Assembly: GCA_965203175.1 (NCBI GenBank)
Contig: OZ241867.1
Location: 2,464,001 to 2,528,000, forward strand
Direction of reading: 5' to 3'
Origin: Candidatus Latescibacterota bacterium
Lineage (GTDB): Bacteria > Latescibacterota > UBA2968 > UBA8231
Length of the DNA stretch: 64,000 bases
Below, piece after piece: positions 7,726-63,867 of the stretch. The first letter of the stretch is position 1. Every line of letters begins with the position of its first letter. The notes beneath the pieces were generated by a model. That model searched no databases. It was given only the letters and a program-made list of their open reading frames with translations, and had not been told where the DNA came from. The position numbers and the translations under genes were made by a program.

Positions 7726-9453
7726 TTGTCGAAACGCAATCGATCTCAAGCGCATGGTCGCGGTGCCGCCGCACGCCGAGATAAGCGCAAGCAAGCGCTG
7801 CCTTGGTCAGTGCGCCTGCGCTCGATGTCCGACCTTCTGCTGCATCCAGCCCCTCCTGATGAGCGGCCGTGGAAATTTTTGCTGCCGGTGCTTGCATTGG
7901 CCTTTGTCGCACGAGCGGCCATTGCCCTGTCTGGCGATTTCGTCCTGCATCCCGACGAAATCATGCAGTATTTAGAGCCAGCGCATCGCTTAGTCTTCGG
8001 CAACGGCGTGACCTACTGGGAGTACTTCTACGGTGCCCGTTCGTGGCTAGTGCCTGGATTGGTCGCTGGCGTCTTAAAGTTGTTCGACATCGTCGGCCTT
8101 GGTCAGCCTGCTTGGTACGTCGGCGGCGTCAAGCTCGTGTTTTGCGCGATTTCCCTGCTCATCCCGGCGGGCATGTACTTTTTTGCCCGGTGGCACTTTG
8201 GCGAAACTGCGGCGCGGGTCGCGTTGCTGATGGGTGCTTTCTGGTACGAGCTTGTCGGTTTTGCCCATAAGCCGATGACCGAGTTTGTCGCCACCGCCCT
8301 GCTGGTGTCCTTACTTGCGCTCTGTGTGCGGCCTGCGTCGGACAGACTGCGGGTGGTTTTGACGGTGTCGGTGCTGGCGGTGCTGGCGGTGGCGATCCGG
8401 GTGCAGTATGCTCCGTTGGCCTTGATAGCTCTCGGTCTGTTCTTTTTGCGCACCGAGAAGAGGACTCAACTCGTACTGGCTGCGGCCACGGTTTTTGTCG
8501 CCATCGGCGTATTTGACGCGATTACGTGGGACGGTGGTTTGTTTCACTCCTACATAGTCTACACCCGACTCAATCTCACCCTCGACGACCTGATTATCAG
8601 TGCGAGCCCGGCATGGGAGTACCTCTATTGGCTCTTAATCGCTAGTGTGGGGCTGGTATCCCTGTGTATCTTAGCGGCCTTGCGCGATCTCCGCCGTTAC
8701 GCTTTGCTGCTGACACTCATCGCCCTTACGCTCCTGATTCACTCTACACAGTCTCACAAGATGTATCGCTTCATCTTCGCCATCATTCCGCTCTATTTGC
8801 TGGTGAGCGCGGATATGCTGGCGTGGTTATGGAAGAATAAACCGCGCTCATCGTTGGGGTTGACTGCCCTCATGCTGGCGGCATCCTTCGCAGCGATTTC
8901 CCTAGCTGGCATCCTGAACGCGCTGCCGTACCAAGCCAGAGTGTATCAGTCTCATACAGGGGCGACCGGCATTGTTGGCTTCCTGCGCAATCAGGATCCG
9001 ATCTTCGCTGCGTACCGCTATCTTGCCAGTGCGCCTAGGGTTTCTGCCGTGTGGCAGGTTGACCGTCTCTATTTCAACCTACCCGGTTATTACTACCTGC
9101 ATCGCGAGATTCCGTTCTACGACGCCAATACCGGGCGTCTCATATTCGCGGATCAAGAGAAAACAGAGGTGGAAGGCATGGAAGCGATTGCAGCCTCGGT
9201 TAGCCACATCGTGTCGGCGGATCCGGCTACTTTCGCTCCCGGCTACTCGGTAGAAAAAACATTCGGCACCATCCGAATCCTAGGCCGAGATGCGGACGAG
9301 CCGGCTGTCCGCCCATGGCAGGAGTACGTCCTGACGATCGGTGGCGACAGCTTCACTAAGGTAATGCGCAAACTCTATCCCGACGCACCCATTCCTCCGC
9401 CCAATTCGGGTATCCGGTTTGCCGACGAAGCGACGGAGATAAAAGGGCACTAG
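7726..9453 (+). CDS. Alg9/PIG-B-like (GT22, GT-C fold) membrane mannosyltransferase
   Basis: HPDEIMQYLEPAHRLVFG, WEY..GARSW, HKMYRFIF, many TM helices. Exact start uncertain. Confidence 0.8.
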   Translation: MSKRNRSQAHGRGAAARRDKRKQALPWSVRLRSMSDLLLHPAPPDERPWKFLLPVLALAFVARAAIALSGDFVLHPDEIMQYLEPAHRLVFGNGVTYWEYFYGARSWLVPGLVAGVLKLFDIVGLGQPAWYVGGVKLVFCAISLLIPAGMYFFARWHFGETAARVALLMGAFWYELVGFAHKPMTEFVATALLVSLLALCVRPASDRLRVVLTVSVLAVLAVAIRVQYAPLALIALGLFFLRTEKRTQLVLAAATVFVAIGVFDAITWDGGLFHSYIVYTRLNLTLDDLIISASPAWEYLYWLLIASVGLVSLCILAALRDLRRYALLLTLIALTLLIHSTQSHKMYRFIFAIIPLYLLVSADMLAWLWKNKPRSSLGLTALMLAASFAAISLAGILNALPYQARVYQSHTGATGIVGFLRNQDPIFAAYRYLASAPRVSAVWQVDRLYFNLPGYYYLHREIPFYDANTGRLIFADQEKTEVEGMEAIAASVSHIVSADPATFAPGYSVEKTFGTIRILGRDADEPAVRPWQEYVLTIGGDSFTKVMRKLYPDAPIPPPNSGIRFADEATEIKGH

Positions 9454-9682
9454 CTACAAAAAGTACAGAACTTCTAGGTTATTAACTGGCCAAAGGAAGA
9501 CCGACAAAAGAGACGCCGCAATGATCGGTCTCATCCAAGTCCTCGCGACAGGAATGAAGACAGGTGGCCCGCAACGACGCAAAATCCCAGCGAACGGTTG
9601 AAGACTCTCCCTCGCGGCTTTTCGTTGTGGGATGCTCTGGCCTTGTGTCGCGCTTGGTTTGCTAGCAGTCGCCAGCTACTTC

Positions 9683-13302: not shown

Positions 13303-14385
13303 TTATCCCGCGCGACGCAAAAATCGCTTGCCCTCAAGCTGATCTACTAGGCCGTCGAGTTCCAACCTCAGCAGCACGTCGAGCAGGGTGGCGGGTGGTA
13401 GGGCGCTGTCTTGGGCGAGTTCGTCGATGTGCCGGGGTTGGCGCGACAGCAGGGCATAGACGCTCTCGTCCTCTGGCGGAAGAGTGGGTATGGGCACGGG
13501 CGCGCTTTGCGGGCGCGGTGACGCCCACATGGTCAATTCCTCTAGCACGTCCTCCACGTCCTCGACCAACTTCGCCCCGTCTTTGATGAGTTGATGGCAG
13601 CCTGCGTTGCGGCCCGAGCGCACGTCCCCGGGCACAGCGAAGACCTCGCGGTTTTGCTCCAAGGCGTGTTGGACCGTAATCAGCGCCCCGCTCTTTTGCG
13701 GAGCCTCGACGATGATCACTCCTAGGCTCAGACCGCTGATGATGCGGTTGCGGCGCGGGAAGGCTCCCCGCTCCGGTTGTGCCCCCCAAGCAAACTCGGA
13801 GACGATGGCCCCCCGTTCGCGGATTTGGCGGTAGAGTGGGGTGTGAGTGCGGGGATAGGGCACGTCGGCCCCGCAGCCCAACACGGCGATGGTGCGTCCC
13901 CCGGCCGCGAGCGCGGCCTCATGGGCCGCCGCGTCGATGCCGAAAGCCATGCCGCTGACGATGCAGATGCCTTGAGCTACTAAACTGCGGGCCAGCTCGG
14001 CGGCGATCAGCTTGCCGTTGTCCGATGCCTTGCGCGAGCCAACGATGGCCACGGTAGGAGGGGACAAATCGTCCGGCCCCAGCGCAAACAGCACGGGTGG
14101 TGGCGCGGCGATTTGGGCCAGTAGTTGGGGATAGTCCGCGTCTGCTGGAGCTAGGCAGCGTCCGCCCGCCGCGCAAAGCCGTTGCCATTGCTCGGCGGCC
14201 CAAGCAAAGTCGGCCTGTGTCGGCCGCTGCCCGGGCGCGTTGGCTCCCACAGCTGCAGTCCAATTTGCGGCGGTGAGGGCCTTTTGCGCCGAGCCAAAGT
14301 GATCTAGTAAGCGCCGCACGCGCCTGGGCGGCTCGGCTTGGCTCAGCGCGAGCAGCGCCTGCACTTCGCGCTGGGACTCAGGCAT
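13303..14385 (-). CDS. dprA: DNA-processing protein DprA
   Basis: VAIVGSRKAS, IVSGMAFGIDAAAH, FPRRNRIISGLS, VEAPQKSGALIT, REVFAVPG, C-terminal winged helix. Confidence 0.96.
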   Translation of the reverse strand: MPESQREVQALLALSQAEPPRRVRRLLDHFGSAQKALTAANWTAAVGANAPGQRPTQADFAWAAEQWQRLCAAGGRCLAPADADYPQLLAQIAAPPPVLFALGPDDLSPPTVAIVGSRKASDNGKLIAAELARSLVAQGICIVSGMAFGIDAAAHEAALAAGGRTIAVLGCGADVPYPRTHTPLYRQIRERGAIVSEFAWGAQPERGAFPRRNRIISGLSLGVIIVEAPQKSGALITVQHALEQNREVFAVPGDVRSGRNAGCHQLIKDGAKLVEDVEDVLEELTMWASPRPQSAPVPIPTLPPEDESVYALLSRQPRHIDELAQDSALPPATLLDVLLRLELDGLVDQLEGKRFLRRAG

Positions 14386-14872
14386 TTTGGAATTTCTCCC
14401 GCAGGCGTCGCTCGATACAAGGCGGCACGAACTGGTTCAACTGCCCGCCCATTTGCGCCACTTCGCGCACGACCGACGAACTGAGATACATGTACTCGGC
14501 CTTAGTCATTAGAAAGACTGTGTCGAACTCCGGCCACAGTGAACGATTGGTCAAAGCCATGGCGAACTCGTGCTCGAAGTCGGTTACTGCCCGCAGGCCC
14601 CGCACGGCCGTGCGGATGTTGTGCTGCCGCGCATAGTCAACGGTCAGGCCGTCGTGGAAATCGACCTTGGCTTGGGGCCAGTCGCTAATGGCCTCGGAAA
14701 TCATCGCCCGGCTCTCCTCCAGCGAAAAGAGCGGCTTTTTGTTGGGATTGATCGCGACCAGTAGGGTGACTCGGGAGAAGATGCCCAAGGCCCGCTCTAG
14801 GATGTTCAGGTGGCCGAAGGTGATGGGGTCGAAGCTGCCGGGATAGATAGCTGTGTCTGCAAAGCTGTTCAT
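14378..14872 (-). CDS. coaD: Phosphopantetheine adenylyltransferase
   Basis: AIYPGSFDPITFGH, RGLRAVTDFEHE, SSSVVREVA. Confidence 0.97.
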   Translation of the reverse strand: MNSFADTAIYPGSFDPITFGHLNILERALGIFSRVTLLVAINPNKKPLFSLEESRAMISEAISDWPQAKVDFHDGLTVDYARQHNIRTAVRGLRAVTDFEHEFAMALTNRSLWPEFDTVFLMTKAEYMYLSSSVVREVAQMGGQLNQFVPPCIERRLREKFQNA

Positions 14873-16257
14873 CAGGGTCCGGCCACAATGATGTCCACGG
14901 CCGCGTAGAGCCGAGCTTGAACCCAGCCGTTTTCGTCGCTTTTGACGGGCACGAGCAAAATTTCGCCGAGGGCCGCGACCTCCTCGGCCTGTTGCAACTG
15001 CTGCAAGAAGGAGTTGATCTGCTGAGGGGACCCAAGGCCCTGCAGTTTTTGCCGCTGGTAGGTGCGCGCCGGCGACATGGACCTATGGATAGGCTTTTGG
15101 ATCGACAGACTGTCTAGGCCGCTCGCATCGGCCCAGCGGGCTACCTTGCCGAAGAATTGCTCCGCTTGGCTAGCCGAGAGGGCGGCTAGTGGAGAGGTGT
15201 CCTGATCGGCAAAGCGGCCTTGGATTGCAAAGCGCAGCGTGCGCTCCTCCCGCCAAGTCGAAAACGAAACCTGCGATGGCAACGCTTGCAAGCTAAGCCT
15301 GAACATGCGCAATACTTTGTGCGAAGGGCTGGTTCCCTCTAGCCAATACTCCCCGGTCGAGTTACAGATCAGCGAAGCCACGCGAATCCCGGCGGGAACC
15401 TGTTCGTCAATCCGCATGATTTGGAGGCAGGCCGTGCTGCGCTGGGACGAGGGGGCTTGGGACGGCATTGGAGCGGGTGTGGAGGAACTGGGTGTGGCTT
15501 CTGGTTGGACCACGGGACTGGGGGCGATTTCTCGCACCGGACTCGGAGAGACCTCTTGTTGCGCCACGGGTTTAGAGAGGACCTCTTGCTGTGCCACGGA
15601 ACTTGGCACTGTATCTCGCTGTGCCACAGGACTAGGCAAGGTGTCTTGCTGTGCCGCATAACCGAGGGAGACCTCTTGCTGTGCCGCGGGCTTGGATTCG
15701 ATTTCTTGTACGGGGCTAGGCGTGGTCTCTTGTTGCGCCACGGAACTTGATGTGACCTCTTGCTGTACCATCACTGGCTTGGGCGTGGCCTCTTGTTCCG
15801 CTATGGGCTTGGGGGAGATTTCTTGTTGTACTACGGGGCTTGGTGTGGCCTCCTGTTGTGCCACGGAACTTGGCACTGTATCTCGCTGTGCCACAGACGT
15901 AGGAGTGCTTTCCTGCTGCTCTACAGGACTGGAGGCGACCTCTTGCGCCGGGCTTGGTGCGGGTTCTCGCTGCGCCGTGGGCTCAGGTATACTCTCTTGC
16001 TGTACTACGAGGCTTGGTGAGGAGTCTTGCACCGTGGGCTTGGGTTCGATTTCTCGCGGTACTACGGGACTGGAGGCGGCCTCTTGCTCTTGCCGCGCCG
16101 CGGGACTGAGGGGGGAATCCGCGCTGAAAAGCGATCCCGCCAGCGCGGGGAAGAACAGATGGAGGCCATACAGTCCTCCACAGACGACCAAGATCGAAAG
16201 CAAGGCTTTTGGCCAAGACCACCGCCGCTGGCGGTCGAGAAGATCGACGTGGATCAT
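14872..16257 (-). CDS. Bitopic membrane protein with a Gln/Pro/Ser repeat stalk and PilN/PilO-like C-terminal domains
   Basis: ATGA overlap with the pilM-like stop gives start 16257. MIHVDLL resembles the PilN N-terminal INLL motif. One TM helix, ~200 aa repeat region, then alpha/beta domains (VPAGIRVASL...WLEG). Confidence 0.7.
   Translation of the reverse strand: MIHVDLLDRQRRWSWPKALLSILVVCGGLYGLHLFFPALAGSLFSADSPLSPAARQEQEAASSPVVPREIEPKPTVQDSSPSLVVQQESIPEPTAQREPAPSPAQEVASSPVEQQESTPTSVAQRDTVPSSVAQQEATPSPVVQQEISPKPIAEQEATPKPVMVQQEVTSSSVAQQETTPSPVQEIESKPAAQQEVSLGYAAQQDTLPSPVAQRDTVPSSVAQQEVLSKPVAQQEVSPSPVREIAPSPVVQPEATPSSSTPAPMPSQAPSSQRSTACLQIMRIDEQVPAGIRVASLICNSTGEYWLEGTSPSHKVLRMFRLSLQALPSQVSFSTWREERTLRFAIQGRFADQDTSPLAALSASQAEQFFGKVARWADASGLDSLSIQKPIHRSMSPARTYQRQKLQGLGSPQQINSFLQQLQQAEEVAALGEILLVPVKSDENGWVQARLYAAVDIIVAGP
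15480..16090 (-). repeat. Coding imperfect tandem repeat, ~33 bp / 11 aa, consensus QQE(V/A/I)(S/T)P(S/K)PV(A/V)
   Basis: More than 15 degenerate units in the translation. An exact ~40-bp block (VAQRDTVPSSVAQ) occurs at ~15591 and ~15857. Confidence 0.9.
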
Positions 16258-17141
16258 CGCACTAACCCCCGCTGAGCCAGCCCGACGGCAATGGCATACG
16301 CGGACCGCTGCGTGGGCGTGGCGCTGCCGAGCAGCCTGGGATTGACTGCGGCGAGTGGATCGAGGATTGAATGCGGCACCTTCAAATGCGTGGCCAAGCC
16401 CTCGCTCCAATACACGACGCCGGCGCCCCACAGGCGTTGGAGGCTGTTGCCGCTCTCGCTCAGCAGCTTGCGTGCCGCGCCTTCTAAGGCTGCGGCCGCA
16501 TCGTCCTCTTCCTCCCAGACGCAACTGGTTAGCGCGGCCAGTTCGCCTTCCTCTGTCAGCAGGAGCCAAGCCTCGCCCATATCCGCATAAAGCAGGAGCG
16601 AGAACTTATCTTTGGCGAGCAGGTTGGCGCATTCGCCGGCGTTGTATAGGGCAAACGGCGCTAGATCCACGTCGAGCCGATCGACCGCTGTCTCCTTGCC
16701 TAGGGTGCGGTAACAGTCAAGGGCGCGGCTGCGAGCCGCGACCACAAAACCCCACTGCGATGTCAGCACAAAATCGCAGCGAAACGCCTTCGCCTCTCCG
16801 GCCAAAATCTGCTCGGACTCCCACAGGAGCTGTTCGCGGTTTTCCTGCACAGTCCCCGCCACGAGGGGCCGTCGTTGAACGAGACCCAAGCGCCGGTCCA
16901 ACGAAAAACAGGTGTTGCTGTAGTCAAAATCGTAAGTCTTTGCGAGCGTGGCTAGTTGGGCGGCTAGCCCTTGCCGCTGCTGCTTGTCGTTCAGGGCTGC
17001 CGGGTCGAAGGGCCGTTCTAGCTCGTCGGTCACCAAAACTAGTGGCCGGACGTCAGTGCGTCCAGCATCTAGGGCGGCGACGCGCACGGTTTGACCACTG
17101 ATGTGGATCCCAGTGGCTTTTGTTCTGCCAAATCCAAACAA
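16254..17141 (-). CDS. Divergent PilM-like (actin/FtsA fold) pilus assembly protein
   Basis: N-terminal ATGIHISGQTVRVA (cf. PilM GIDIG..SVK), VDLAPFALYNA, C-terminal YAIAVGLAQRG. TTG start with a strong AGGAGAGG RBS. Confidence 0.7.
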   Translation of the reverse strand: MFGFGRTKATGIHISGQTVRVAALDAGRTDVRPLVLVTDELERPFDPAALNDKQQRQGLAAQLATLAKTYDFDYSNTCFSLDRRLGLVQRRPLVAGTVQENREQLLWESEQILAGEAKAFRCDFVLTSQWGFVVAARSRALDCYRTLGKETAVDRLDVDLAPFALYNAGECANLLAKDKFSLLLYADMGEAWLLLTEEGELAALTSCVWEEEDDAAAALEGAARKLLSESGNSLQRLWGAGVVYWSEGLATHLKVPHSILDPLAAVNPRLLGSATPTQRSAYAIAVGLAQRGLVR

Positions 17142-17170
17142 TCCAACCCCCTCTCCTGCGAAGTGAACCT

Positions 17171-17560
17171 CTACTTCACTATGAGCAAAGGACGGAGCTT
17201 TTCTAGCGTCTTCGCGCCGATGCCATTGACTTCAGTTAGTTGCTCCAGCCGTTTGAAAGGACCTCGCTCGCGGCGAAAGGCGACGATCCGCTCGGCGATC
17301 TTGGGGCCGACTGCCGGCAGTGCGACTAGCTCGGCGATTGTAGCCGAATTTAGCGAGAGCGGCCCTTGTTTGGCTACTACCTTTTCGAGCGGTGGCGGCG
17401 GAGCTACCGCTCGCGGCACGACGCTGAATTCCTCTAGGCGCGATGGGCGATACCAATCGCTTACGGCGACGAGCATCCCTATGATTAGGGCCACTGTCAG
17501 GCCGATGAGCGCGCGTTGCTCGCGTTCATTAAACAAAAATATCTCCCACAACCGCGCCAA
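17171..17560 (-). CDS. comEA: ComEA-family helix-hairpin-helix DNA-binding protein
   Basis: N-terminal TM, then LNSATIAELVALPAVGPKIAERIVAFRRERGPFKRLEQLTEVNGIGAKTLEKL. Confidence 0.9.
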   Translation of the reverse strand: MARLWEIFLFNEREQRALIGLTVALIIGMLVAVSDWYRPSRLEEFSVVPRAVAPPPPLEKVVAKQGPLSLNSATIAELVALPAVGPKIAERIVAFRRERGPFKRLEQLTEVNGIGAKTLEKLRPLLIVK

Positions 17561-17569
17561 GCAATATGC

Positions 17570-20500
17570 TCAGCGGAGGAAGAACGTGCCAGAAAGCCGA
17601 ACCTCGCGGATCTTCCGCGTCTTGTCTCTGAGGAGGTCTTTGTTGTTCTCGATGCGAATCCGCCCCTCGCCGCGGAAGTTCGCACTGAAGTTATAGGTCA
17701 TGGTCAACTGCGTGCGCCAGATGTTTTTTTTGTCGTTGGGGACGCGCTCTTCGTCTCCCGTGGCGATGGAACGCGTTTCTGCTTCAAACTTCTGTTCCAA
17801 GTTGAGAGTGACGTCGCTTTTGAGGCGGCCTAGCAGGGGCAACCGCTGCGGCTTGAGATTATGAGTGATCTTGAACGTGGTAGTCACTCGCTCTCTGTCT
17901 TGGGTACCGCGCAGAGGCTGAGTGCCGCCGCTCTGTTCACCTAGTTCAAAATCTCGACTCTCCGAGGTGGAGATCACGCGTTCGATGGTCGTCGTCGGTC
18001 CCCAGCGCCAGCGGCCGTTCCACGACGCTCTGAACTCGGTTTTGGTTTCCTCAGAGACCAGGTGACCGGGCATGAGGCTGCCCGCTCCCTCGCTGGCTTC
18101 CGAGGTTTCGAAACTGGCATTTACCTGCGCGCTGTTGATCACCCTCTTTATCAAGGGAAGCCGATCGGCTCGCCCCCAACTGAGGCTCAAGCGCGGGAAG
18201 GTCCGGTCGTTGCGCAGGCGCAGCCGTTGCTGCGAAGCACCGGTATTCTCTGAGGTCTGCTCCTTGGAGTTGACCTTGATGCTGATACCAAAGGGCAAGC
18301 GCATCCCCGAGCCGGCCTCAAACGAGGCCGTCTGCGACCAAGTGTCTCGGAGGGTCAACCCTTGGGAAACTTGTCGCACCCGCAGGGTGTCTTCGAGACC
18401 GAGTTGATAGGAGAGCGAGGGCCGATGCAGCAAGTTGAAGTGGCGCGCCTTGGCGTTGTGCCGCCAACTGGCGTTGACCGGCTCGACGATGCGGCCGGTC
18501 CACCCGGCGAAACGGCGGAAGATATTGGGGCCTTTTTGCTGTTTGGTCTGGTTTTCCTTCTGTTCGGTTTGGCTTTTTTGCTGTTCGGTTGGGCCTTTCT
18601 TTGAGATTGGCTCGTCCTCGTCTGCGTCTCGATTTTGGTTTTGGTTTCGGTCGTCGGGCCGCTGTGCCCTGCGGCTTTGCCCCGGGGACTCGCCCAAGTT
18701 CTTGAGCAAGGTCGGGATTTTGAGATTGAGGCGTGCGGAAAGGTCGTTTTGATTGCGGATTTCGAGGGTCTTGAACGTCAGACCGCTGATCGGATCGATC
18801 GGGGCCACCCCGCGCCGCTGCGCTGGGTCGTTTTGCTCCTCGTAAGTGGCCTTGAAGGTGTAATTTTGGTCCAGCCACGAGACTAAGCGCAGCGAAAGAC
18901 TGAGGTCGGCCGTTTGTCGGCGCCCGACTTCGCGCCCAAAGCTCCGCTTGTCGAGGACGAATTTTTTCCGCAAATCTCGGTTGATTTTGAGATTGTAGTT
19001 GGTCGATAGACCGGTGAGTGGACTGAGCTTAGAGGCATAGGTTTCGACGAGCGTGAAGTCCTCCTGCTCGGTCGGCTCGTCGTCGCCGCGGCGCAGCAGT
19101 CGCGAGGTGCGCCGGCTGCCGTTGACCGAGTAGGTCAGGCTCGAAGGTAGCGGACGGAACTCCATCCGCGTCCAGTTGTTGGGCACGAACGACGGCAGCC
19201 AGCCCATGATCCGCACCGCTGGCTTGGGCAGGGGCATGCTGTAGTTGAAGTTCATCGTCTGAGCCTCGCGCTCGTTGATCGGGCGCACCGGGTCCGAGCT
19301 GTGTTCGCGCGAATGCGACAGCCGCAGGTTCATCTGGTCGAGGGTCCAGCGCAAGAAGAAGTTTTTGCCTTGGCGCCGGCTGATGGACACGTCGTAGAAC
19401 TCTTTGGAGCGGACGGCTTGTTGCTCTAGCTTTTCTTCGGCGGTTAGCTCTACGTCCGATCCAGGGCCGAAGCGCGGCAAGCTGGTCGTGCGGCTGACAT
19501 TTACCTTGAGTGGCATCAAAAATCCCCAGCTACTCGGCAGGAGCTTTTGCGCGTTGGTAGAGACCGCTAGCGCGGCTTCGCGGTCCGTGCTGTTGCCTCC
19601 TTGGCCGGTAAAGCTGCGAAAATTTTCCTGTCGCCAGAGCACATTGCCACCGAAGCTGGCAACGTCGGCCAGCTTGGTGTTGAGCTGAGCGTACGCGGCT
19701 AGCCCAGGGTCGTTGCGCGCCTCGTCGAGGCGAAGTTCGTCGAGCAAGACCCGGCCGCTATACGCGCGGTTTTCCGCTCGGTTGCGCAGGCCGACGCTCA
19801 GTTGCTTGATCGACTGCATCGACGGATTGCCGCGCACCCGGTAAATGGCTTCCTCGCCGCTGCGCAGGCCCGACCGCGCAAAAACTTGGTCTAGGGAGAA
19901 GCGCTCGACTTGGGGGTCGTAGCCGGCCGCGTACAGCGCTTCCAGTTCGCGTTGAGCGATCAAGGTCTTGCCGTCTAGCGGTGCCCCACGCGGATCGATT
20001 ATCCGGTAGGTGTAGTAGAACTCTCCCGTGGTGGTGTCGGCCTGCCCAGATTGCAGGAGGGCCTTGAGCTGGGAGATGACGGGCAGATCCACATCTACTT
20101 GGTTGCCCTTCCAGCCCTTGCGCCCTCCCTCCCAACCCGGGAAGATGGGGCTGATGGCCTCGTAGTAGTTGGTCGAATCCACGCCAAAGCGCACGAAGAG
20201 TACCAAGTCGCTCGAATCGCCGTGTGCGTATTCAATGGTCCCGCTCGAGTCGCCATAGACGTACATGCGCAGCCGCTCATAGCTGGTGTAGTTGGCAGAG
20301 CGGGTCAGGATTCTGGTCGCCGACATCTGGTGCCCAGGTTCTAGGTTTTCGTAGGCCAGCACCAGCGACTGCTCGCGTTCGCGGGTGCGCGACTGCACAT
20401 TGCGGCGAATCTTCACGCCGGGCGGCGGCCGGTAGCTCTGGCTCTTGTCGGTGCCGATGACCGTGATGTCGAGGATCTCGCGGTCGCCGATCGGGAAGCG

Positions 20501-23500
20501 CTCGTCGAGCCGCACTACGTCGTCTTCCTGCCATTTGTTGCCCACGATCTCCACGAGCGCGATCTCGGCTCGCACGGGGTCTTCTACCTCCGGCCGCGGA
20601 CCGCTCGAAAGCATCAGGCGCGCGTATTCGATGCGGGTGGAGTCGGGCAAGCCCACGCGCTCGACATGGGGGCCGAACAGGGGCACTCGGAGCTGACGCC
20701 AGCCCTCGTTTTGGGTGCCGGCGACCTCGTAGTCGCCCGACGACAGGTCGATCTCGTACTGGTAGTAATTGTTGCGTCGGTCGAGCACGCCGTTGCCGTT
20801 GAGGTCTTCTGTGTCTGGCCGATCGCCGCTTTCAACGTCTTTTTTGTTGTTCTCGGTTCCGTTGATATGGCGGTAGTCGTCCTCGTTGCGCTGGTGGTCG
20901 TATTTCCAGTTGTCCCCTTCGGGGTCGTCGGCCGAGCGGTTGGGGCGCAGGGGATCGGGGTCCGGGTAAAGCGCGGTGAAGGCCTGCTTCCGCTCGGCTA
21001 AGGAGCGGGTGGTGTCGAAGGCGGCGTCTTGCAGGCGCAAGTAGAAGTTCAACTCGGCCTCGTCGTCGCGGCCGTCGATACCCACGTCCTCTTCCCGCGA
21101 CACCAATCCGTCGCCTGCTGCTTGCCCGGGGAAGGGCTCGTCTTCGGTGTCGAGGCGGCCGTTGGCGATGTAGTCCTCGTTGATTTGGTCGCCCAAGTTC
21201 ACGTACAAGGTGCCTTCTCGGCCCCGGACCCATATCTCTATGAACTTGGACTCGGAAAAGTCGTTGACGGTTGAGAAGGCGAAGGAGATTCCTCCCCAAG
21301 ACTTGGGGATTTCGGGGCGCGGCGTCAGCTCCATCGCCAGGATGTCGGTGCGCCGATTTTGGGCTTCGATTTGCTCTTCTTGGTTGGGCCAAATGTCGGT
21401 GCGCAGCACTCCGTCGTAGGGATTGTACCAAATGAAGCGCGCGCGATTTTCCGCGCCAAAGCGCTCGTCCTTCGGTGCGCTGGCTGGTACCCAGCGCGGG
21501 CGGTTGACGACCAGTGAGGTGGGCCGCTCGCTGTCTTCAAAGTCGTCGATGTACCCGCGCCCCTTGGTGTTGAGATTGGGACGGCTTTGCGCGACTTCGG
21601 CATCTAAGGTCACTTCTGAAGGAACGGCCGTCTTGATCAGCGGCAGCATGTCGACGACGCGGGTGAGGAGCGGCACCTCTCTCCGGACGCGCAAGTCGAA
21701 GTTCCATATCACTGTGCGCTTCGGCTCGTTGCCCACCCGTACCCGCCGGTCGCTCGAACGTTCGTTGTTGTAGATCATGGTGCTGCCCACGCGCCCGTCG
21801 CCCTCCCAGAATTCGTACTCAGTGCGCAGTCCCAACAGGGTTTTTTGCTGACTGCCGATGTTGAAGACGTCCTCGGACTCAAAGGTAATTTCCAAGTCGG
21901 TGCCGGGATCGGCCACTTCCTGAGCGACCGAGCCGATAAACGTCACACTGCCCGTGTAATCGACTCGGTAGTCGGTATCCCGCGTCAGTGGGCGGCCGTT
22001 TAGCTGGACTTCCACGGTTTCGGGCCGGACGCCGCCGAAGATGCCGCCTAGCCGAATGCGCTGCTCCGAGGAGGCAGCGCGGACGAGGATTTTATAGCGG
22101 CTAGCCTCGATCTGGGCGCGCTGCTGCTGCTCGTTGTAGATGGCGGGGACGGGTTCGTCGAGCAGGCCGCGGTATTTGTCGGAGCGCGGATCAAAGGGGC
22201 GCTGGTCAGGGAAAATCAAGTGCCCGCGGATGTCGTCCAGCCCGATGTAGTCGGCGTCGACGACGCGGTCAGGCGCGCTACCGGGATCTTTGCCGCGCTC
22301 GTCCAAACCCAAAAGTTGCAAATAGGAGCGGCCCTGCTGCGAAAGTTGATCCTCTTGACCGGGCACTTCCTTGGCGATATCGACCTGCAAAGTCTTGGGA
22401 TCGAAGCGGCGGCCAGTGGAAAACCCGGAGGCAATGCGGTACACGTTTTTCCACTCTAGGTTCCAAGTGGGAAAACCTGGACGGGCATTGCGGGCCTTGA
22501 TCAGCTTCAGGTGCAGGGAGTCGGATTCTGCGCCCGCGTTGAGCCGAGCCGTCTCGTGTTGGAGGGTGCCATCGAAGTCCGGCGCACGAGTTTTGAAATG
22601 CACGGCCATGGCATGGGGATCGGATACGGCTCTGTTGAGGATGATATAACCAGCCTCAGCCAAGATCTCATAGTCTTCGTCCGGGTCGAGCCGGTGCCAG
22701 GTTCCCTCCTCAAAGCAGCCGCTGTTGCTCAGGCGATTGCCCGCTGAGTCAAAGCACTCGATGGTGGAAAGGGAGTCGGACGGATCGACCCAAGCAACGC
22801 CGGGCTTGGCGAACAGCTCAGCGTCATTTCTCGTATTGAAGTCGTTGATATAGACTTCAAGGCGACTGATATCGACGAAGTTTTCTGCGCCAAACTGCGG
22901 TCCATCCAACAGCCGGCGGAAGTTGGGGAGGTGGGCGCGGTAGAACTCGTGCAGAAAGAAATACGTGTTGCGGATGTATTGATAGTCTTTGAGTTGGAGC
23001 GTATCGATGGCTGCTCCGCCCTTAAAGGTCTGGCGGTTGGATTTGCTCTTTTCGTGGCTGGCGACGGTCGTAAAGGCCAGCGGGCCGACCTGCCCCTTAG
23101 TGCGGATGCCGAAGAGACCCTTGTTCTTCTGCCGGAAGCCGACGAAGCGAGTATTGGGCAGTTCTAGGGTAGTGTTGCCGGCCTGCACCTCTTGGAATAT
23201 GGAGTCCTCTTCGCCTTCGTAGTCGAGCTTGATCTGGTTGGATAGCTGATCGCCCATATTGGAGCTAAAGGCCGAACCGAAGTCTTGGGTGTTTTGGTCG
23301 ATGCGTATGTTGATCAGTTCGCCGACTTTGCCTTCCACTGTGAAATCGGATTCCTGTTCGATGCCCAGCGAGGGGAACTTGGAGCTTCGTCCGTATGAGG
23401 TCTGCACTTCGCCATCGGTCCACTCGCTCTTGCCAGAAATGATAATGGTGCGCGAACCATTGAGCGCGAGACTGGGGCCTTTGTCGCCGATAAAACGCCG

Positions 23501-23959
23501 CAGGGGCTTGGGCGCGGAAAAGGGCACAGTCCACTCAAAGCGGTTACCCTTGCGCCGACGCTGCTCGGAGGCTGTGCTGCGGAAGTCGCGGCGGATTTGC
23601 TGGTGCCAAAGCTGACGGTGCTTGGCTTGGTATTCCATGCGAAAATAGTCGTTTAGATTCACGGCGACCGCTGGTCCTTCGGCGAATCCGCTGACGCGGC
23701 GGCCGTAGTTGGCCATTCCCAATGAGTCCACCGCGGCTTGGTACGAGATTGGCGCGCGGCTGGGGGCGGGCAAGAGCGGTTGGCCAGCCCCAAAGGCGGC
23801 TTGGTGAGGGACTGTAAAGCGCTGAGAAAGCGGGCCGTACAGCGGCTCAAAGTGCAGGCCAGGCTCGGCGTGTGCCCCCGCCGCGAGCAAGCAAACACAC
23901 AGCCACTGAGACCAGGAAAGCGCTTGGAAGAAAAAGCGGAGCAACACCTCTAAATTCAC
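17570..23959 (-). CDS. sprA: SprA/Sov type IX secretion system outer-membrane translocon
   Basis: 2129 aa with signal peptide. KLDYEGEED, QAGNTTLELP, GLFGI, EWKNVY, DYRVDY, QKTLLG, RVGNEP, GYIDDFE, WYN, WGGI, FIEIW, EDVGIDG, NGTENN, PDTEDLNGNG; beta-strand-rich C-terminus. Confidence 0.92.
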   Translation of the reverse strand: MNLEVLLRFFFQALSWSQWLCVCLLAAGAHAEPGLHFEPLYGPLSQRFTVPHQAAFGAGQPLLPAPSRAPISYQAAVDSLGMANYGRRVSGFAEGPAVAVNLNDYFRMEYQAKHRQLWHQQIRRDFRSTASEQRRRKGNRFEWTVPFSAPKPLRRFIGDKGPSLALNGSRTIIISGKSEWTDGEVQTSYGRSSKFPSLGIEQESDFTVEGKVGELINIRIDQNTQDFGSAFSSNMGDQLSNQIKLDYEGEEDSIFQEVQAGNTTLELPNTRFVGFRQKNKGLFGIRTKGQVGPLAFTTVASHEKSKSNRQTFKGGAAIDTLQLKDYQYIRNTYFFLHEFYRAHLPNFRRLLDGPQFGAENFVDISRLEVYINDFNTRNDAELFAKPGVAWVDPSDSLSTIECFDSAGNRLSNSGCFEEGTWHRLDPDEDYEILAEAGYIILNRAVSDPHAMAVHFKTRAPDFDGTLQHETARLNAGAESDSLHLKLIKARNARPGFPTWNLEWKNVYRIASGFSTGRRFDPKTLQVDIAKEVPGQEDQLSQQGRSYLQLLGLDERGKDPGSAPDRVVDADYIGLDDIRGHLIFPDQRPFDPRSDKYRGLLDEPVPAIYNEQQQRAQIEASRYKILVRAASSEQRIRLGGIFGGVRPETVEVQLNGRPLTRDTDYRVDYTGSVTFIGSVAQEVADPGTDLEITFESEDVFNIGSQQKTLLGLRTEYEFWEGDGRVGSTMIYNNERSSDRRVRVGNEPKRTVIWNFDLRVRREVPLLTRVVDMLPLIKTAVPSEVTLDAEVAQSRPNLNTKGRGYIDDFEDSERPTSLVVNRPRWVPASAPKDERFGAENRARFIWYNPYDGVLRTDIWPNQEEQIEAQNRRTDILAMELTPRPEIPKSWGGISFAFSTVNDFSESKFIEIWVRGREGTLYVNLGDQINEDYIANGRLDTEDEPFPGQAAGDGLVSREEDVGIDGRDDEAELNFYLRLQDAAFDTTRSLAERKQAFTALYPDPDPLRPNRSADDPEGDNWKYDHQRNEDDYRHINGTENNKKDVESGDRPDTEDLNGNGVLDRRNNYYQYEIDLSSGDYEVAGTQNEGWRQLRVPLFGPHVERVGLPDSTRIEYARLMLSSGPRPEVEDPVRAEIALVEIVGNKWQEDDVVRLDERFPIGDREILDITVIGTDKSQSYRPPPGVKIRRNVQSRTREREQSLVLAYENLEPGHQMSATRILTRSANYTSYERLRMYVYGDSSGTIEYAHGDSSDLVLFVRFGVDSTNYYEAISPIFPGWEGGRKGWKGNQVDVDLPVISQLKALLQSGQADTTTGEFYYTYRIIDPRGAPLDGKTLIAQRELEALYAAGYDPQVERFSLDQVFARSGLRSGEEAIYRVRGNPSMQSIKQLSVGLRNRAENRAYSGRVLLDELRLDEARNDPGLAAYAQLNTKLADVASFGGNVLWRQENFRSFTGQGGNSTDREAALAVSTNAQKLLPSSWGFLMPLKVNVSRTTSLPRFGPGSDVELTAEEKLEQQAVRSKEFYDVSISRRQGKNFFLRWTLDQMNLRLSHSREHSSDPVRPINEREAQTMNFNYSMPLPKPAVRIMGWLPSFVPNNWTRMEFRPLPSSLTYSVNGSRRTSRLLRRGDDEPTEQEDFTLVETYASKLSPLTGLSTNYNLKINRDLRKKFVLDKRSFGREVGRRQTADLSLSLRLVSWLDQNYTFKATYEEQNDPAQRRGVAPIDPISGLTFKTLEIRNQNDLSARLNLKIPTLLKNLGESPGQSRRAQRPDDRNQNQNRDADEDEPISKKGPTEQQKSQTEQKENQTKQQKGPNIFRRFAGWTGRIVEPVNASWRHNAKARHFNLLHRPSLSYQLGLEDTLRVRQVSQGLTLRDTWSQTASFEAGSGMRLPFGISIKVNSKEQTSENTGASQQRLRLRNDRTFPRLSLSWGRADRLPLIKRVINSAQVNASFETSEASEGAGSLMPGHLVSEETKTEFRASWNGRWRWGPTTTIERVISTSESRDFELGEQSGGTQPLRGTQDRERVTTTFKITHNLKPQRLPLLGRLKSDVTLNLEQKFEAETRSIATGDEERVPNDKKNIWRTQLTMTYNFSANFRGEGRIRIENNKDLLRDKTRKIREVRLSGTFFLR

Positions 23960-24448
23960 ACCTATCGACGTCTATTGTTTGACATGCTCCCAAACCCCCA
24001 AGGGACGGGAGTCTGAGGCGTCAAACAGCGAGCTATCACCAAATACTTTCGGCGTGCTGCTCGCCAGTCTCAATGAAGAAAACGGTCTTTCAATTGAGGT
24101 TAGCGGAAGCGACTCAGAAGCCTTCACTTGTGGCTCGGCTGGCAAGAGCAATGCACCGAGCGGCTTCTGTATTAACCAAACGCGATAGGCGGTCTCCAAA
24201 CCCAAAAACAGGAGGATGCTGCCCAGACGAAGCGGGCAACTACCTGAAAACATAGCACGCGGCTGCGATTATTTCAAGGAAGCCCTTGCAAAAACCATTC
24301 CCGTTGTGCGGCGCAGTGCGCGTTTTTTGGACGGCGACCTAAGTCATTATATTTGAGGAAACTAGGTCCGTGGCCCGTCCGGGGTATCCCCGCTTGCGAT
24401 GGGGTGCCCTGAGTGCCGCGCACTACAGCCTTGTATCCCTTTCGACCC

Positions 24449-25855
24449 ATGACGACCCTATCCCGCTACGTGCTTAAAGAGCACGGCTGGCCCTTTGTGC
24501 TTGGCTTTGTGCTGATCCTTTTCATCCTGCTGATCGACGTCGTTTTGCAGACGATGGACCAAGTGCTGAGCAAAGGACTAACCCTGTTGGCCGCTCTCCA
24601 GCTTTTGCTTTTCAACTTAGCTTGGATCGTGGCGCTGGCCGTGCCCATGGCCGTGCTCATCGCTGTACTCATGGCCTTTGCCCGCCTCGCCGCCGATGGG
24701 GAAATCATCGCGGCCAAAGCCTGCGGAGTGAGCTTTTGGTCGCTCCTGCGGCCGGTGCTGGTAGCCGCTTTTTTACTCACCCTGCTGATGATTCTTTTTA
24801 ATGATCAGGTTCTCCCGGATTGGAATCACCAAGCCCGCGTCCTGTCGTCGAGCTTGCAACGGACGAAGGCCGCCTTGGTACTGAGGGAAAAGGAAGGGGT
24901 CTTCATACCTAACTTGGGCGACTACCATCTGCTCATCCGCCAGATTGACCCGGAGACTAACGAGCTAGCCGGCATCGCGCTCTACGACGCCTCGCGCCTT
25001 GGGCCGCCGGTGATTCTCCACGCCCCTAGGGGCCGCATCGCGCTGTTGGGAGATGGAGCGTACATCCGCTTGGAGTTGGAGGAAGGCCATGTCCAGCGCG
25101 TCGAATCCAGCCAGGAAGAGCGTTTTTTCTACGGCACCTTCGCCCGCCAAGTGCTGCACATCAAGGACGAGCGCCGCCGCTACGAGCACCGTCCCTCGTC
25201 CTATCGCAGCGACCGCGAGCTAGACATCGCGGCCATGCACCGCTTGGTGCTAGAGCGCCGCCGCGAGCAGGAGCGCGCTTACGGCCGCCTCGATTCGATT
25301 GCTGCGCGCTACCTCGAATTGCACCAAACAGACATCGCGGCCATGCACCGCTTGGTGCTAGAGCGCCGCCGCGAGCGGGAGCGCGCTTACGGCCGCCTCG
25401 ATTCGATTGCTGCGCGCTACCTCGAATTGCACCAAAGCCAGTTTGCCGACTCTACGGTCAATGAGCTAGAGCGAGAAAGGAAACAGGTGGCCGAGGCTCT
25501 GCACCGACAGTGGCGGCACATAGACCGCCGCGCGGGGCGAATCAACGAGTATTTGGTCGAGATTCACAAGAAGCTATCCATCCCGGCCGCCTGCTTGGTT
25601 TTCGCGCTGGTCGGCGCTCCATTGGGCGCGCTGATTCGCCGCCGCGGTGCCGCCGTCTCCGTCGGCGTCAGTTTGTTCTTCTTTTGGATCTACTGGATGT
25701 TCCTCATCGGCGGCGAGGAGCTAGCCGACCGAGGCTATATCCCGCCGCCTTTGGCGATGTGGGCACCCAATTTGGTCTTCGTCCTCGCCGGATGGGGGCT
25801 GTTGCGGGTGGTCGCGTACGACCGCGCTGGGCGCCGAGGGACGAAAGAGGCCTGA
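24449..25855 (+). CDS. lptF: LPS export permease LptF
   Basis: LSRYVLKE, LAVPMAVLIAVLMAFARLAADGEIIA, EIHKKLSIPAAC, MWAPN. Start moved to ATG 24449. Confidence 0.9.
   Translation: MTTLSRYVLKEHGWPFVLGFVLILFILLIDVVLQTMDQVLSKGLTLLAALQLLLFNLAWIVALAVPMAVLIAVLMAFARLAADGEIIAAKACGVSFWSLLRPVLVAAFLLTLLMILFNDQVLPDWNHQARVLSSSLQRTKAALVLREKEGVFIPNLGDYHLLIRQIDPETNELAGIALYDASRLGPPVILHAPRGRIALLGDGAYIRLELEEGHVQRVESSQEERFFYGTFARQVLHIKDERRRYEHRPSSYRSDRELDIAAMHRLVLERRREQERAYGRLDSIAARYLELHQTDIAAMHRLVLERRRERERAYGRLDSIAARYLELHQSQFADSTVNELERERKQVAEALHRQWRHIDRRAGRINEYLVEIHKKLSIPAACLVFALVGAPLGALIRRRGAAVSVGVSLFFFWIYWMFLIGGEELADRGYIPPPLAMWAPNLVFVLAGWGLLRVVAYDRAGRRGTKEA
25222..25437 (+). repeat. 108-bp in-frame tandem duplication inside lptF
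   Basis: Copies at 25222-25329 and 25330-25437; one internal substitution (CAG/CGG) and a different last base. Confidence 0.95.
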
Positions 25856-25856
25856 G

Positions 25857-26930
25857 ATGCGCATCCTCGACCTCTATTTGACGCGTCGCTTCCTGTTGTG
25901 CCTGGGGATCGCCGTGGTCAGCCTATTGCTCATTGCGGTGATTATCGACCTCACCGAAAACATCGATACCTTTATCGACTTTAAAGCTCGTCCCGAGCAG
26001 ATCTTGCTCTACTACGTCTATCGGTTGCCGTACTGGCTCATCCTAACCCTGCCCATCGCCGCGCTACTCGGCGCGCTTTTTGCCCTGACCAGCTTGGCGC
26101 GCCAAAACGAAATCACCGCTATGAAGGCCACTGGCATTAGCCTGTATCGCCTGCTAGCCCCGGTTTTCGCGTGTGCCCTCGCCGTTTCGGTCGCGGCTTT
26201 TTCCTTTACCGATTGGGTGGTTCCGTCTGCTACCTATCGGTACAATCAAATCAGCGACGAGATTAAGTCCTATCACCGCGGTGACGGCTCCCGCCGCCAA
26301 GTCCTGCTCCAAGACGCGGGCAACCAGTTCGTGTACGCCCGCAGCTACGACGCGGGGCGGCAACGCGCCGACGAAGTGTCTTGGGAGCGGCTGCACGGCT
26401 ATGTCCCGCTGGAGCGCGCCGTGGCCCGGCGCATGGAATGGCGGGAGGGCACCTGGGTGCTCTTCGAAGGCCGCCGCTTTCGCTTTGCCGCGGGCGAAGC
26501 CGTGGCGACTTCTTCCTTTGATACTCTATCCCTACCGAGCTTGTCGTTGCTTCCCAGTGACTTTGCTCGTCAGCAGAAGGACCCCGAGGAAATGAACTAC
26601 GCCGAGCTGGCCGACTACATCGCCCGCGCCACGCTCAACGGAGAGGACGCCACGCGCCAGCGAGTCGATTTGCACCTGAAAATATCCTTTCCCCTGACCA
26701 GCTTCATCATCATCGCCCTCGGCGCGACCCTCGGCGCCAATGCCCGCCGCGCCGGCTTGGCCAATAGCTTCGGCTTGGGAGTCCTGCTCTGCTTTGCTTA
26801 TTACAGTTGCGTCAAAGCTGGCCAGGCCCTCGGTTGGAATCATTTGCTTGCGCCTTGGTTGGGTGCGTGGATAGCCAACCTGCTGTTTGCCGTCTTGGCC
26901 TTAGTGCTTATGTGGCGCGTGCCCAAATAA
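25857..26930 (+). CDS. lptG: LPS export permease LptG
   Basis: MRILDLYL, LPIAALLG, LARQNEITAMKATGISL, PEEMNYAEL, KISFP, AWIANLLF. Confidence 0.9.
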   Translation: MRILDLYLTRRFLLCLGIAVVSLLLIAVIIDLTENIDTFIDFKARPEQILLYYVYRLPYWLILTLPIAALLGALFALTSLARQNEITAMKATGISLYRLLAPVFACALAVSVAAFSFTDWVVPSATYRYNQISDEIKSYHRGDGSRRQVLLQDAGNQFVYARSYDAGRQRADEVSWERLHGYVPLERAVARRMEWREGTWVLFEGRRFRFAAGEAVATSSFDTLSLPSLSLLPSDFARQQKDPEEMNYAELADYIARATLNGEDATRQRVDLHLKISFPLTSFIIIALGATLGANARRAGLANSFGLGVLLCFAYYSCVKAGQALGWNHLLAPWLGAWIANLLFAVLALVLMWRVPK

Positions 26931-28154: not shown

Positions 28155-28604
28155 CTATGGGGACGCGCTGGCGACCTCCAGGCTGAAGGGGTCGGATTCG
28201 TCCGCCAAGCGCACATTTAAGACCCAGTCGCCGTCAATCGCGATCCAGATCTTGCGCCGCACCCGAATTCCGTCGGTCGTATGTGGCAAGAGGACCACGT
28301 CGAATTCCACTTCTCTACCGGCTGGCAGAACCCCGCCCGAAACCTCCACTCGCTGGCCGGCTGGCACGCGGGTGCGCACGATCCGCGGTGCGTCCGCATC
28401 GATCTCGTTAAGGTATGCCACCTCAAGATCGTAGGCTGTGTGGTTAGCGACCAAAACAGTCCCGTCCCGTCCGGCGGGTTCGGGGGGCGTAGGCGCAGGA
28501 GGTGCGGTGGGTGCTTTGCCGCCGCAACTGCTGAGCAGCCAAGCGGTTAGCAATAGCGCGGCTCTTACTGCGCCGCGACGTGGATCAATGCTTGGGCGAT
28601 CCAT
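28155..28604 (-). CDS. Putative lipoprotein
   Basis: Hydrophobic stretch with lipobox LSSC, Pro-rich linker, small beta domain. True start may be slightly downstream. Confidence 0.7.
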   Translation of the reverse strand: MDRPSIDPRRGAVRAALLLTAWLLSSCGGKAPTAPPAPTPPEPAGRDGTVLVANHTAYDLEVAYLNEIDADAPRIVRTRVPAGQRVEVSGGVLPAGREVEFDVVLLPHTTDGIRVRRKIWIAIDGDWVLNVRLADESDPFSLEVASASP

Positions 28605-29947: not shown

Positions 29948-30064
29948 GAAGGCGAAGTATAGGTTGCCCCTCTGTCGCCAGCAAGTAACCTTTGCGCTAT
30001 AGTCTTAATAACCTTATACTTGCAAGACCCCTTCCCCTGTTGTCTAATTCCAATATTTAGGTCT

Positions 30065-52372: not shown

Positions 52373-52490
52373 CGATTGAATTGTTGGATTCGCAAGTATC
52401 ATCGCCGCAGATATGATATTCAAGGAAAGGAAAGCGACGGAATTATCTGCGGGCCTTGTCAATGCACACACCCTGAATGGAGGAAGCCTC

Positions 52491-56762: not shown

Positions 56763-56803
56763 TTTTGCTCTTAAGTTACTTATTTCGTAACTTAAGAGCA
56801 AAA
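56763..56803. promoter_or_regulatory. Perfect 17-bp inverted repeat, likely the AbiEi autoregulatory operator
   Basis: TTTTGCTCTTAAGTTAC-ttatttc-GTAACTTAAGAGCAAAA; the last A is the A of the ATG. Confidence 0.8.
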
Positions 56804-63838: not shown

Positions 63839-63867
63839 CGCCCTGCTTCCTTTCCTGAGTTGGGACA

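Follow-up and report, generated by a model that had tools for sequence, protein, structure and literature searches.

How does type IX secretion (T9SS) work in lineages of the Fibrobacteres-Chlorobi-Bacteroidetes (FCB) group that have no recognisable PorK, PorL, PorM or PorN, and how does DNA pass the envelope of FCB bacteria that possess neither pili nor secretins? Both questions are raised by a string of six genes in a 64,000-nucleotide stretch of DNA, termed here the window, from a Candidatus Latescibacterota bacterium (assembly GCA_965203175.1, contig OZ241867.1, positions 2,464,001 to 2,528,000). In this string the gene of the T9SS outer-membrane translocon SprA is followed by genes for a ComEA-like protein, a PilM-like protein, a putative fusion of PilN-type and PilO-type domains, CoaD and DprA. 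The gene order is conserved across Latescibacterota, and the PilM/PilN pair is a paralogue distinct from that of the type IV pilus. A PilM/PilN(O) paralogue that stands beside sprA and comEA, independently of a pilus ATPase, constitutes a concrete candidate for either question, and the linkage of sprA, comEA and pilus-scaffold genes without pilus motor genes hints at an undescribed envelope machine. The genes concerned are the following.

17570-23959, minus strand: sprA, T9SS outer-membrane translocon SprA/Sov (2129 residues; TIGR04189, PF14349)
17171-17560, minus strand: comEA-like gene (129 residues as called; helix-hairpin-helix (HhH) domain, PF12836 and TIGR00426)
16254-17141, minus strand: pilM-like gene (295 residues; profile and fold matches to PilM)
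14872-16257, minus strand: pilN/pilO fusion-like gene (461 residues from the ATG; translation and fold matches)
14378-14872, minus strand: coaD, pantetheine-phosphate adenylyltransferase (164 residues; TIGR01510, 190.9 bits against a cut-off of 103.3)
13303-14385, minus strand: dprA, DNA-processing protein A (360 residues; TIGR00732, PF02481, PF17782)
24413-26930, plus strand: lptF and lptG, divergent neighbours of sprA outside the operon (PF03739, 260.6 and 290.5 bits)

An earlier note on this DNA had described six co-oriented genes with gaps of 9 and 29 bp and three overlaps, and every junction matches the DNA. Between the TGA of sprA and the TTG at 17560 of the comEA-like gene lie 9 bp, while 29 bp (17142-17170) separate the latter from the pilM-like gene. 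The pilM-like and pilN/O-like genes overlap in an ATGA at 16254-16257, the pilN/O-like gene meets coaD in a TGATG at 14872, and coaD and dprA share 8 bp (14378-14385). A hairpin scan, in which 18 terminator-like sites were observed against 15.2 ± 3.9 in shuffled sequence, placed none in either intergenic gap of the string, as the note had also read. Profile and fold searches supported all six gene identities, including those of PilM and PilN/O, which had been assigned by eye; DprA reached 249.8 bits with TIGR00732 (cut-off 191.15), 256.9 bits with PF02481 and 54.8 bits with PF17782. Transcriptional read-through had been proposed there as a check. In four metatranscriptome libraries labelled sponge metagenome there are contigs that share 90-99% identity with the region, and such RNA-library contigs bridge the comEA/pilM-like junction (X1, 16626-17232; X2, 16626-17492) and the coaD/dprA junction (X1, 14269-14527; X3, 14331-14518); the sprA/comEA junction lies outside the listed pieces.

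Conservation of the string was evaluated in an even draw of 81 Latescibacterota genomes, for which the coordinates of SprA and PilM-like matches were compared by hand. The PilM-like model matched 59 of the 81 genomes, and in 48 of these 59 the pilM-like gene shares contig and strand with sprA and lies 1.1-3.3 kb downstream of where the main SprA match ends, a match that extends to roughly position 1600-1980 of the 2319 model positions. The 48 linked genomes span at least eight GTDB families (designated f1, f2, f4, f5, f6, f7, f9 and f10), and the linkage proposed from the window is thus conserved well beyond close relatives. In one of the remaining genomes (G120) the two genes lie ~484 kb apart, and in 10 of the 59 they are on different contigs or no SprA match was obtained. 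Related loci were collected with an 11-row alignment and two peptide patterns, a search whose reach is limited to motif-bearing relatives. Among the 22 genomes behind loci L033-L060, the order sprA-comEA-pilM-like is present in 20, with one contig ending before sprA, and comEA and the pilM-like gene are adjacent in 20. At locus L051 of G120 an IS110-family transposase gene (8445-9527, plus strand) stands directly upstream of comEA, with no sprA within 10 kb, and this is the only break of the linkage seen on an intact contig. In a further set of loci comEA lies between sprA and the pilM-like gene in 17 of 20.

Beyond the pilM-like gene, an open reading frame (ORF) of PilN type, starting with MIRINLL, MIKINLL, MIRVNLL or the like, follows directly in f1 genera and in f5, f6, f7, f9 and f10, and is itself followed by rsmD and/or coaD. 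A dprA gene is found within 6 kb in nine of ten f1 loci, the tenth stopping at a contig end, and also occurs in f4-type loci. This order is retained between families even though SprA of other families is only ~30% identical to that of the window. The six genes therefore form one conserved gene string of Latescibacterota, sometimes including rsmD and with dprA further on, and since the order recurs across the phylum it is far beyond chance. NYN-domain genes, encoding predicted RNase-type proteins with an N-terminal coiled coil, were also observed in this neighbourhood (L033:9405-10163, L039:9333-10133, L035:3132-4733); in f2 they occupy the slot of the pilN/O gene of the window and in f3 they come after rsmD and coaD.

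The relationship of the sprA-linked pair to the type IV pilus machine was addressed in the window's own genome (G000; one contig of 6.58 Mb, rated 93% complete) and in the phylum sample. Profile searches of G000 revealed no secretin and no PilB/PilT/GspE-type (T2SSE) ATPase, the T2SSE control having matched in 13 of 14 genomes, and no canonical PilM, since PF11104 scored only 21.8 bits elsewhere in the genome. The absence of PorK/L/M/N and PilQ, previously remarked on for the window, holds genome-wide as far as profile searches recognise these components, and the same applies to a canonical pilMNOPQ set. In the phylum, T2SSE ATPases occur in 27 of 81 genomes and are distributed by family (13/13 in f10, 3/3 in f13, 0/24 in f2, 0/6 in f4 and 4/14 in f1), and no T2SSE match was obtained in 43 of the 59 genomes that have a PilM-like protein. 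A second PilM match adjoins the T2SSE gene in f10 genomes (G092 contig C201, G113 C37, G116 C13, G119 C67), two of which, G092 and G113, have a separate PilM match beside sprA. Because the module is present without T2SSE in 43 of 59 genomes, and because f10 genomes hold a second PilM beside T2SSE, the PilM/PilN pair linked to sprA is not the pilus copy but a paralogue of it, one that coexists with the pilus machine and outlasts its loss.

The PilM-like and PilN/O-like proteins, each encoded by a single copy gene in G000, have no Pfam or NCBIfam match on their own, and PF11104 gives none at E ≤ 0.01. Among relatives, the PF11104 score reaches 15.3 bits at L035, 26.9 at L037 and 38.1 at L074 against a cut-off of 27. 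A profile built from eight orthologues matched Myxococcus xanthus PilM in the PDB (code 3jc8; E = 1.8e-15, over profile positions 7-293), Thermus thermophilus PilM (2ych; 1.1e-6) and Pseudomonas aeruginosa PilM (5eox; 5.9e-6). The AlphaFold2 model (pLDDT 91.1) retrieved with Foldseek a top ten composed entirely of PilM structures (TMq up to 0.76), with FtsA next. The protein is ~60-100 residues shorter than PilM chains and looks like a cytoplasmic actin-fold scaffold. His13 is invariant in eight of eight PilM-like sequences and aligns with the Asp/Glu of the GLDIG/GLEIG motif of 3jc8 and 2ych, so the acidic phosphate-1 residue of the PilM nucleotide site is absent and replaced by His. Since this His is invariant at the acidic position, nucleotide binding has probably been lost or impaired.

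The PilN/O-like protein begins with the peptide MIHVDLL, followed by a hydrophobic transmembrane helix, a spacer of ~200 residues rich in Pro, Gln, Glu and Ser, arranged in units of roughly 10 residues, and a conserved C-terminal region of ~195 residues (14875-15459) with two ferredoxin-like domains. The N-terminal conserved peptide of PilN is of the MIRINLLP type, and orthologues of the PilN/O-like protein start with MIRVELL, MIRINLL or MIKINLL. In all 24 loci of the genus the orthologue follows the pilM-like gene and comprises 265-461 residues; because both ends of the sequence are conserved, the differences in length presumably lie in the spacer. A longer gene starting at a TTG at 16569 was ruled out, given that all 24 orthologues begin at MI(R/H)V(D/E)LL. 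The Pfam models of PilN (PF05137) and PilO (PF04350) do not match the protein, and a profile of the C-terminal region returned chance-level rows from the PDB (E of 0.74 or worse). A profile of this region that derives from a single genus, so that its negatives carry little weight, found no match in G025, G027, G030, G040 and G041. Plain Foldseek on the AlphaFold2 model of this region (pLDDT 88.8) gave E values no better than 2.1e-3, PilO rows having a probability of 1.00, and the PilO and GspL matches became clear only with VIA-align. For model residues 6-84 the latter revealed the periplasmic domains of EpsL, XcpY and PulL (Z 10.3, 9.0 and 8.2), PulM (6.8) and PilN (4bhq; 6.1), and for residues 98-194 PilO (2rjz; Z 10.4, rmsd of 2.1 over 92 residues), with further PilO matches to 3jc8_Oa (Z 10.1) and 5uvr (Z 8.1). 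On the basis of these models, the most fitting description of the protein is that of a PilN to whose C-terminal side a PilO-type domain is covalently fused. Two side observations concern the spacer. RNA-library contig X3 (record 18) skips 409 spacer bases (15732-16142) and has 91 other letters between, which fits the strong length variation (265-461 residues) of this gene among species, and a search with TRF detected only a degenerate 30-nucleotide repeat at 15584-15662.

The ComEA-like protein matches HhH families over their cut-offs (PF12836, 70.7 bits against 27; TIGR00426, 60.7 against 53.1) and remains below that of the full-length comE subfamily model (TIGR01259, 60.5 bits against 152.35). 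It displays a short N-terminal tail, one transmembrane helix and a periplasmic HhH domain, and an N-terminal MF(xF)NRxEQ motif together with the transmembrane segment is conserved in an 18-row alignment. From this architecture it looks like a bitopic protein with a predicted DNA-binding domain in the periplasm. In 19 of 19 pattern-matched orthologues an ATG lies directly at MF(xF)NRxE, and the same N-terminus results in the window from a TTG at 17536 that is in frame and has GGGAG before it. The true start is therefore probably the TTG at 17536, which would give a protein of 121 residues whose gene begins 33 bp from sprA. Elsewhere, G000 encodes a full-length ComEC (DUF4131, Competence and Lactamase_B domains) that stands alone among housekeeping genes away from sprA, and two more HHH_3 (ComEA-type) proteins of 92 residues (G000:C1:218815-219093) and 210 residues (G000:C1:3315-3947), the first of which we take to resemble the small soluble periplasmic type of ComEA. 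In the transformable Vibrio cholerae, a ComEA-type HhH protein binds periplasmic DNA, according to the available text of PMC3879209.

SprA of the window matches TIGR04189 with 615.4 bits (cut-off 200), residues 415-1906 aligning with model positions 366-1978, and PF14349 with 84.5 bits, and its gene is single copy in G000. The genome also encodes a PorU sortase (NF033707, 632 bits; cut-off 420), a PorV-family protein (NF033709, 223 bits; cut-off 90) whose gene adjoins that of PorU, a second PorV/Q-like protein, and 103 matches to the T9SS type-A sorting domain TIGR04183 at E ≤ 0.001. The type IX system to which the SprA translocon belongs looks like a working one. Profile searches of G000 found no GldL, GldM or GldN, and for GldK retrieved generic FGE-sulfatase partial matches only (up to 100.7 bits, with a cut-off of 350), as in 13 of 13 genomes. 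GldM_1st exceeded its cut-off in none of the 81 Latescibacterota genomes, in 76 of which SprA was found. In a control draw of 41 genomes (G041-G081) from the phylum that holds an Ignavibacteria metagenome-assembled genome, SprA was matched in 34, and GldL and GldM_1st in the same nine only; either divergent motors escape the GldL/GldM models, or SprA commonly occurs without GldLM. A set reduced to Sov, PorU, PorV, PorQ and PorZ, without PorKLMN, is noted for 'Incertae sedis' Bacteroidetes in the available portion of PMC7323717. SprA is present without a PilM-like match in f8 (5/5), f13 (3/3) and G125, all of which also lack GldM. The PilM-like module is therefore not required for SprA, and, as f8 and f13 have neither, PilM-like and GldM do not show a complementary distribution. 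As a separate observation, genes for secreted cargo cluster near the sprA region. The 10 kb that precede the window contain five tandem ORFs of ~680-750 residues (G000:C1:2453768-2462871), all with a type-A T9SS sorting domain at the C-terminus, and the last ORF of the window (62156-63868, minus strand) has a C-terminal domain of FlgD_ig type.

Outside Latescibacterota, the PilM-like model matched two of the 41 control genomes, both of Ignavibacteria type. In these genomes (hrcA-)grpE-dnaJ-comEA is followed by a membrane protein of ~155 residues, the pilM-like gene, rsmD and coaD, in a block far from sprA. The in-between membrane protein (L061:9503-9973, plus strand; L074:10329-10787, minus strand) comprises 152-156 residues, is 36% identical between the two loci (E = 4e-30) and has no Pfam match; by eye, its N-terminal hydrophobic helix and the next helix appear pilin-like. 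In 31 stretches downstream of sprA in the control phylum, 4 of which are shorter than 4.5 kb, no comEA, pilM-like, pilN/O, coaD or dprA gene was found, while three positive controls were matched; the stretches cover the downstream side of sprA only. ComEA-like and PilM-like thus represent the tightest pair of the string, recurring in two phyla.

What, then, does the module do? The reading ranked highest, still a tentative one, is that the three middle proteins form a platform in the inner membrane and periplasm that needs no pilus, handles periplasmic DNA and is co-expressed with sprA. PilM, PilN and PilO are scaffold proteins, and the N-terminal MI(R/H)V(D/E)LL of the PilN/O-like protein is the kind of peptide that would dock into PilM. 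The periplasmic part of the PilN/O-like protein would consist of a long flexible spacer carrying the fused PilN/GspL-type and PilO-type domains, and the three middle proteins would form one self-contained module. The platform may then hold DNA bound by ComEA and hand it to ComEC, encoded elsewhere, and to DprA, with an outcome comparable to the pilus-free transformation of some Bacteroidota. This reading is placed first because the ComEA-PilM pair recurs in two phyla, HhH domains of ComEA type bind DNA in transformable bacteria, ComEC and DprA are present and Riemerella provides a precedent. In the available text of PMC8459023, pilus-free transformation of Riemerella needs ComEC, DprA and a periplasmic HhH protein, and no pilus homologues were found.

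Several observations weigh against such a platform. DNA handling alone leaves unexplained why sprA is adjacent in 48 of 59 genomes, with SprA only ~30% identical between families, and the presence of coaD and rsmD implies that the string also carries housekeeping genes. With two other HHH_3 proteins in G000, the ComEA of competence need not be the sprA-linked copy. Genes for DprA, ComEC and ComEA-type proteins are common in bacteria not known to be transformable, ComEC being encoded in 10 of 14 control genomes. The bridging RNA-library contigs derive from relatives and could contain DNA, and they are no proof that the string is transcribed as one unit. Finally, f2, f3 and f4 have no recognisable PilN/O gene, an NYN-domain gene, rsmD or coaD following the pilM-like gene instead.

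Next to be considered, and rather unlikely, is synteny without shared function. The locus would then be a slowly rearranging housekeeping neighbourhood, comprising lptG-lptF and the divergent sprA-comEA-pilM-pilN-rsmD-coaD, whose members have unrelated jobs, and the PilM/PilN pair may serve another envelope or division role. The unrelated housekeeping genes coaD and rsmD are indeed part of the string, in 15 of the 22 Latescibacterota genomes from which L033-L060 come, lptF and lptG are placed divergently as in the window, which makes the whole region syntenic, and in G120, where the IS110 insertion parted sprA from comEA-pilM by ~484 kb, both parts were kept. FtsA, the next-best fold match of the PilM-like protein after PilM, is also compatible with a division role. 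Synteny accounts less readily for an order retained between families whose SprA is only ~30% identical to that of the window, with very short gaps and overlaps kept, and the second, canonical PilM of some genomes argues for a dedicated role of the sprA-linked paralogue.

A direct functional tie to SprA was the proposal of the earlier note, in two forms: DNA passing through SprA, or a secretion platform built on the PilM/PilN pair. The linkage on which both were based stands. A necessary coupling is made less likely by f8 and f13, which have SprA without a PilM-like protein, and by the Ignavibacteria-type block, which lacks sprA. That SprA has in the sprA-linked module a trans-envelope partner not described before, either as a T9SS platform without PorKLMN or as a machine for DNA uptake through the SprA barrel rather than a secretin, appears somewhat improbable when both forms are taken together.

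As a T9SS platform, the PilM-like, PilN/O-like and ComEA-like proteins would align the SprA translocon from the inner membrane and periplasm without PorK/L/M/N, the PilN/O spacer reaching the outer membrane in the way that PilNOP reaches the PilQ secretin. Such a role, which we regard as improbable, would explain the same-strand, short-gap adjacency to sprA throughout the phylum (48/59) and the retention of the module without a pilus ATPase in 43 of 59 genomes. It also agrees with the lack of a GldM_1st match over the cut-off in all 81 genomes and of recognised GldL/M/N/K in G000 in spite of PorU, a PorV-family protein and 103 sorting-domain matches, and a transmembrane helix, Pro-rich spacer and globular domains suit a periplasm-spanning tether. 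The module is, however, no general substitute for the motor, because f8 (5/5), f13 (3/3) and G125 have SprA with neither PilM-like nor GldM, and without PilB/T and with His at phosphate-1 the PilM-like protein has no evident energy supply. In addition, comEA-pilM is not beside sprA in Ignavibacteria-type genomes, and the GldL/GldM models matched just 9 of 34 SprA-positive control genomes, so that divergent motors may be missed. We know of no role for a DNA-binding HhH domain in T9SS.

Passage of DNA through SprA, or through SprA with PorV, beneath which the ComEA-like protein would ratchet DNA into the periplasm, is the most doubtful of these proposals. In its favour, G000 lacks a secretin and T2SSE yet has ComEA-like, ComEC and DprA proteins, comEA starts 9-33 bp past the sprA stop in an order conserved across the phylum, and the outer-membrane DNA route in pilus-free FCB bacteria is called unknown in PMC8459023, as far as its available text goes. 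In contrast, the Riemerella transposon screen recovered an outer-membrane barrel of CarboxypepD_reg type and no T9SS gene, the terms 'T9SS' and 'SprA' occurring 0 times in the available text of that paper, and comEA, pilM-like, coaD and dprA were found in none of the 31 sprA-downstream stretches of the control phylum. No precedent for nucleic-acid transport by SprA was found in the literature searched, which consisted mostly of journals open without subscription. The view that the module is what remains of a lost type IV pilus operon is rejected, since f10 genomes carry a T2SSE-linked PilM besides the sprA-linked one.

The folds and families described here are all known, and it is their arrangement that is new. 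This applies to an orphan PilM-PilN(O) paralogue independent of the pilus ATPase, to a covalent fusion of PilN-type and PilO-type domains, as modelled here, behind a long spacer, and to a conserved operon that joins comEA to the T9SS translocon gene in a phylum without recognised PorKLMN. Searches of the same literature found no description of this arrangement, no link of SprA to PilM or ComEA and no T9SS locus with comEA, pilM or pilN, and on T9SS in Latescibacteria and T9SS composition in Fibrobacter they yielded nothing relevant. Should the linkage reflect synteny alone, the locus would remain an example of a PilM-PilN/O module that is orphan and independent of the ATPase, and of a putative covalent PilN-PilO fusion.

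Other features of the window were noted in passing. A few kb past lptG lie selA, encoding selenocysteine synthase (28565-29947, minus strand), and a gene for a protein with six LysM repeats and an Amidase_3 domain (30020-32068, plus strand). The segment 52000-58400 has a G+C content of 0.53-0.54, compared with ~0.60, and may be an island gained by acquisition. It encodes large proteins with C-terminal redoxin/thioredoxin domains (52413-54473 and 55405-56706) and an AbiEii-type nucleotidyltransferase toxin (57452-58315), preceded by an ORF of 219 residues (56803-57462).

The closest known relatives of the sprA-linked pair belong to the type IVa pilus alignment subcomplex PilM-PilN-PilO(-PilP-PilQ) of P. 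aeruginosa, M. xanthus and T. thermophilus (PDB codes 5eou, 3jc8, 2ych, 2rjz and 4bhq). Common to both are the PilM-type actin fold, a PilN-type N-terminal peptide with one transmembrane helix, PilN/GspL-type and PilO-type ferredoxin-like domains as predicted from the models, and the gene order pilM then pilN. In contrast with the pilus system, PilP, the PilQ secretin and a PilB/PilT ATPase are missing from G000, for which the search did not extend to pilins and PilC, and the PilN-type and PilO-type domains appear to be in one chain behind a spacer of ~200 residues. The PilM-like protein is shorter, has His in place of Asp/Glu, is encoded next to sprA and comEA, and in f10 is a paralogue beside the canonical copy. 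The GspL-GspM pair of type II secretion (EpsL, XcpY, PulL, PulM) provides the best fold matches to the first periplasmic domain, and GspL shows that such domains can be fused in one chain. The partners in the fusion differ, however: GspL joins PilM-like and PilN-like parts, whereas here the PilM-like protein is separate and the PilN-type and PilO-type domains are those predicted to be fused; G000 also lacks GspE and GspD. With the T9SS of Bacteroidota, G000 shares SprA, PorU, a PorV-family protein, a second PorV/Q-like protein and the 103 type-A sorting-domain matches, and differs in that GldK/L/M/N are unrecognised. Compared with Riemerella anatipestifer, for which the available text of PMC8459023 reports no PilM/PilN-like component, places the genes outside a sprA operon and proposes a route through a CarboxypepD_reg barrel and a surface protein rather than SprA, the Latescibacterota genome has in common its membership of the FCB group and the possession of ComEC, DprA and a periplasmic HhH protein.

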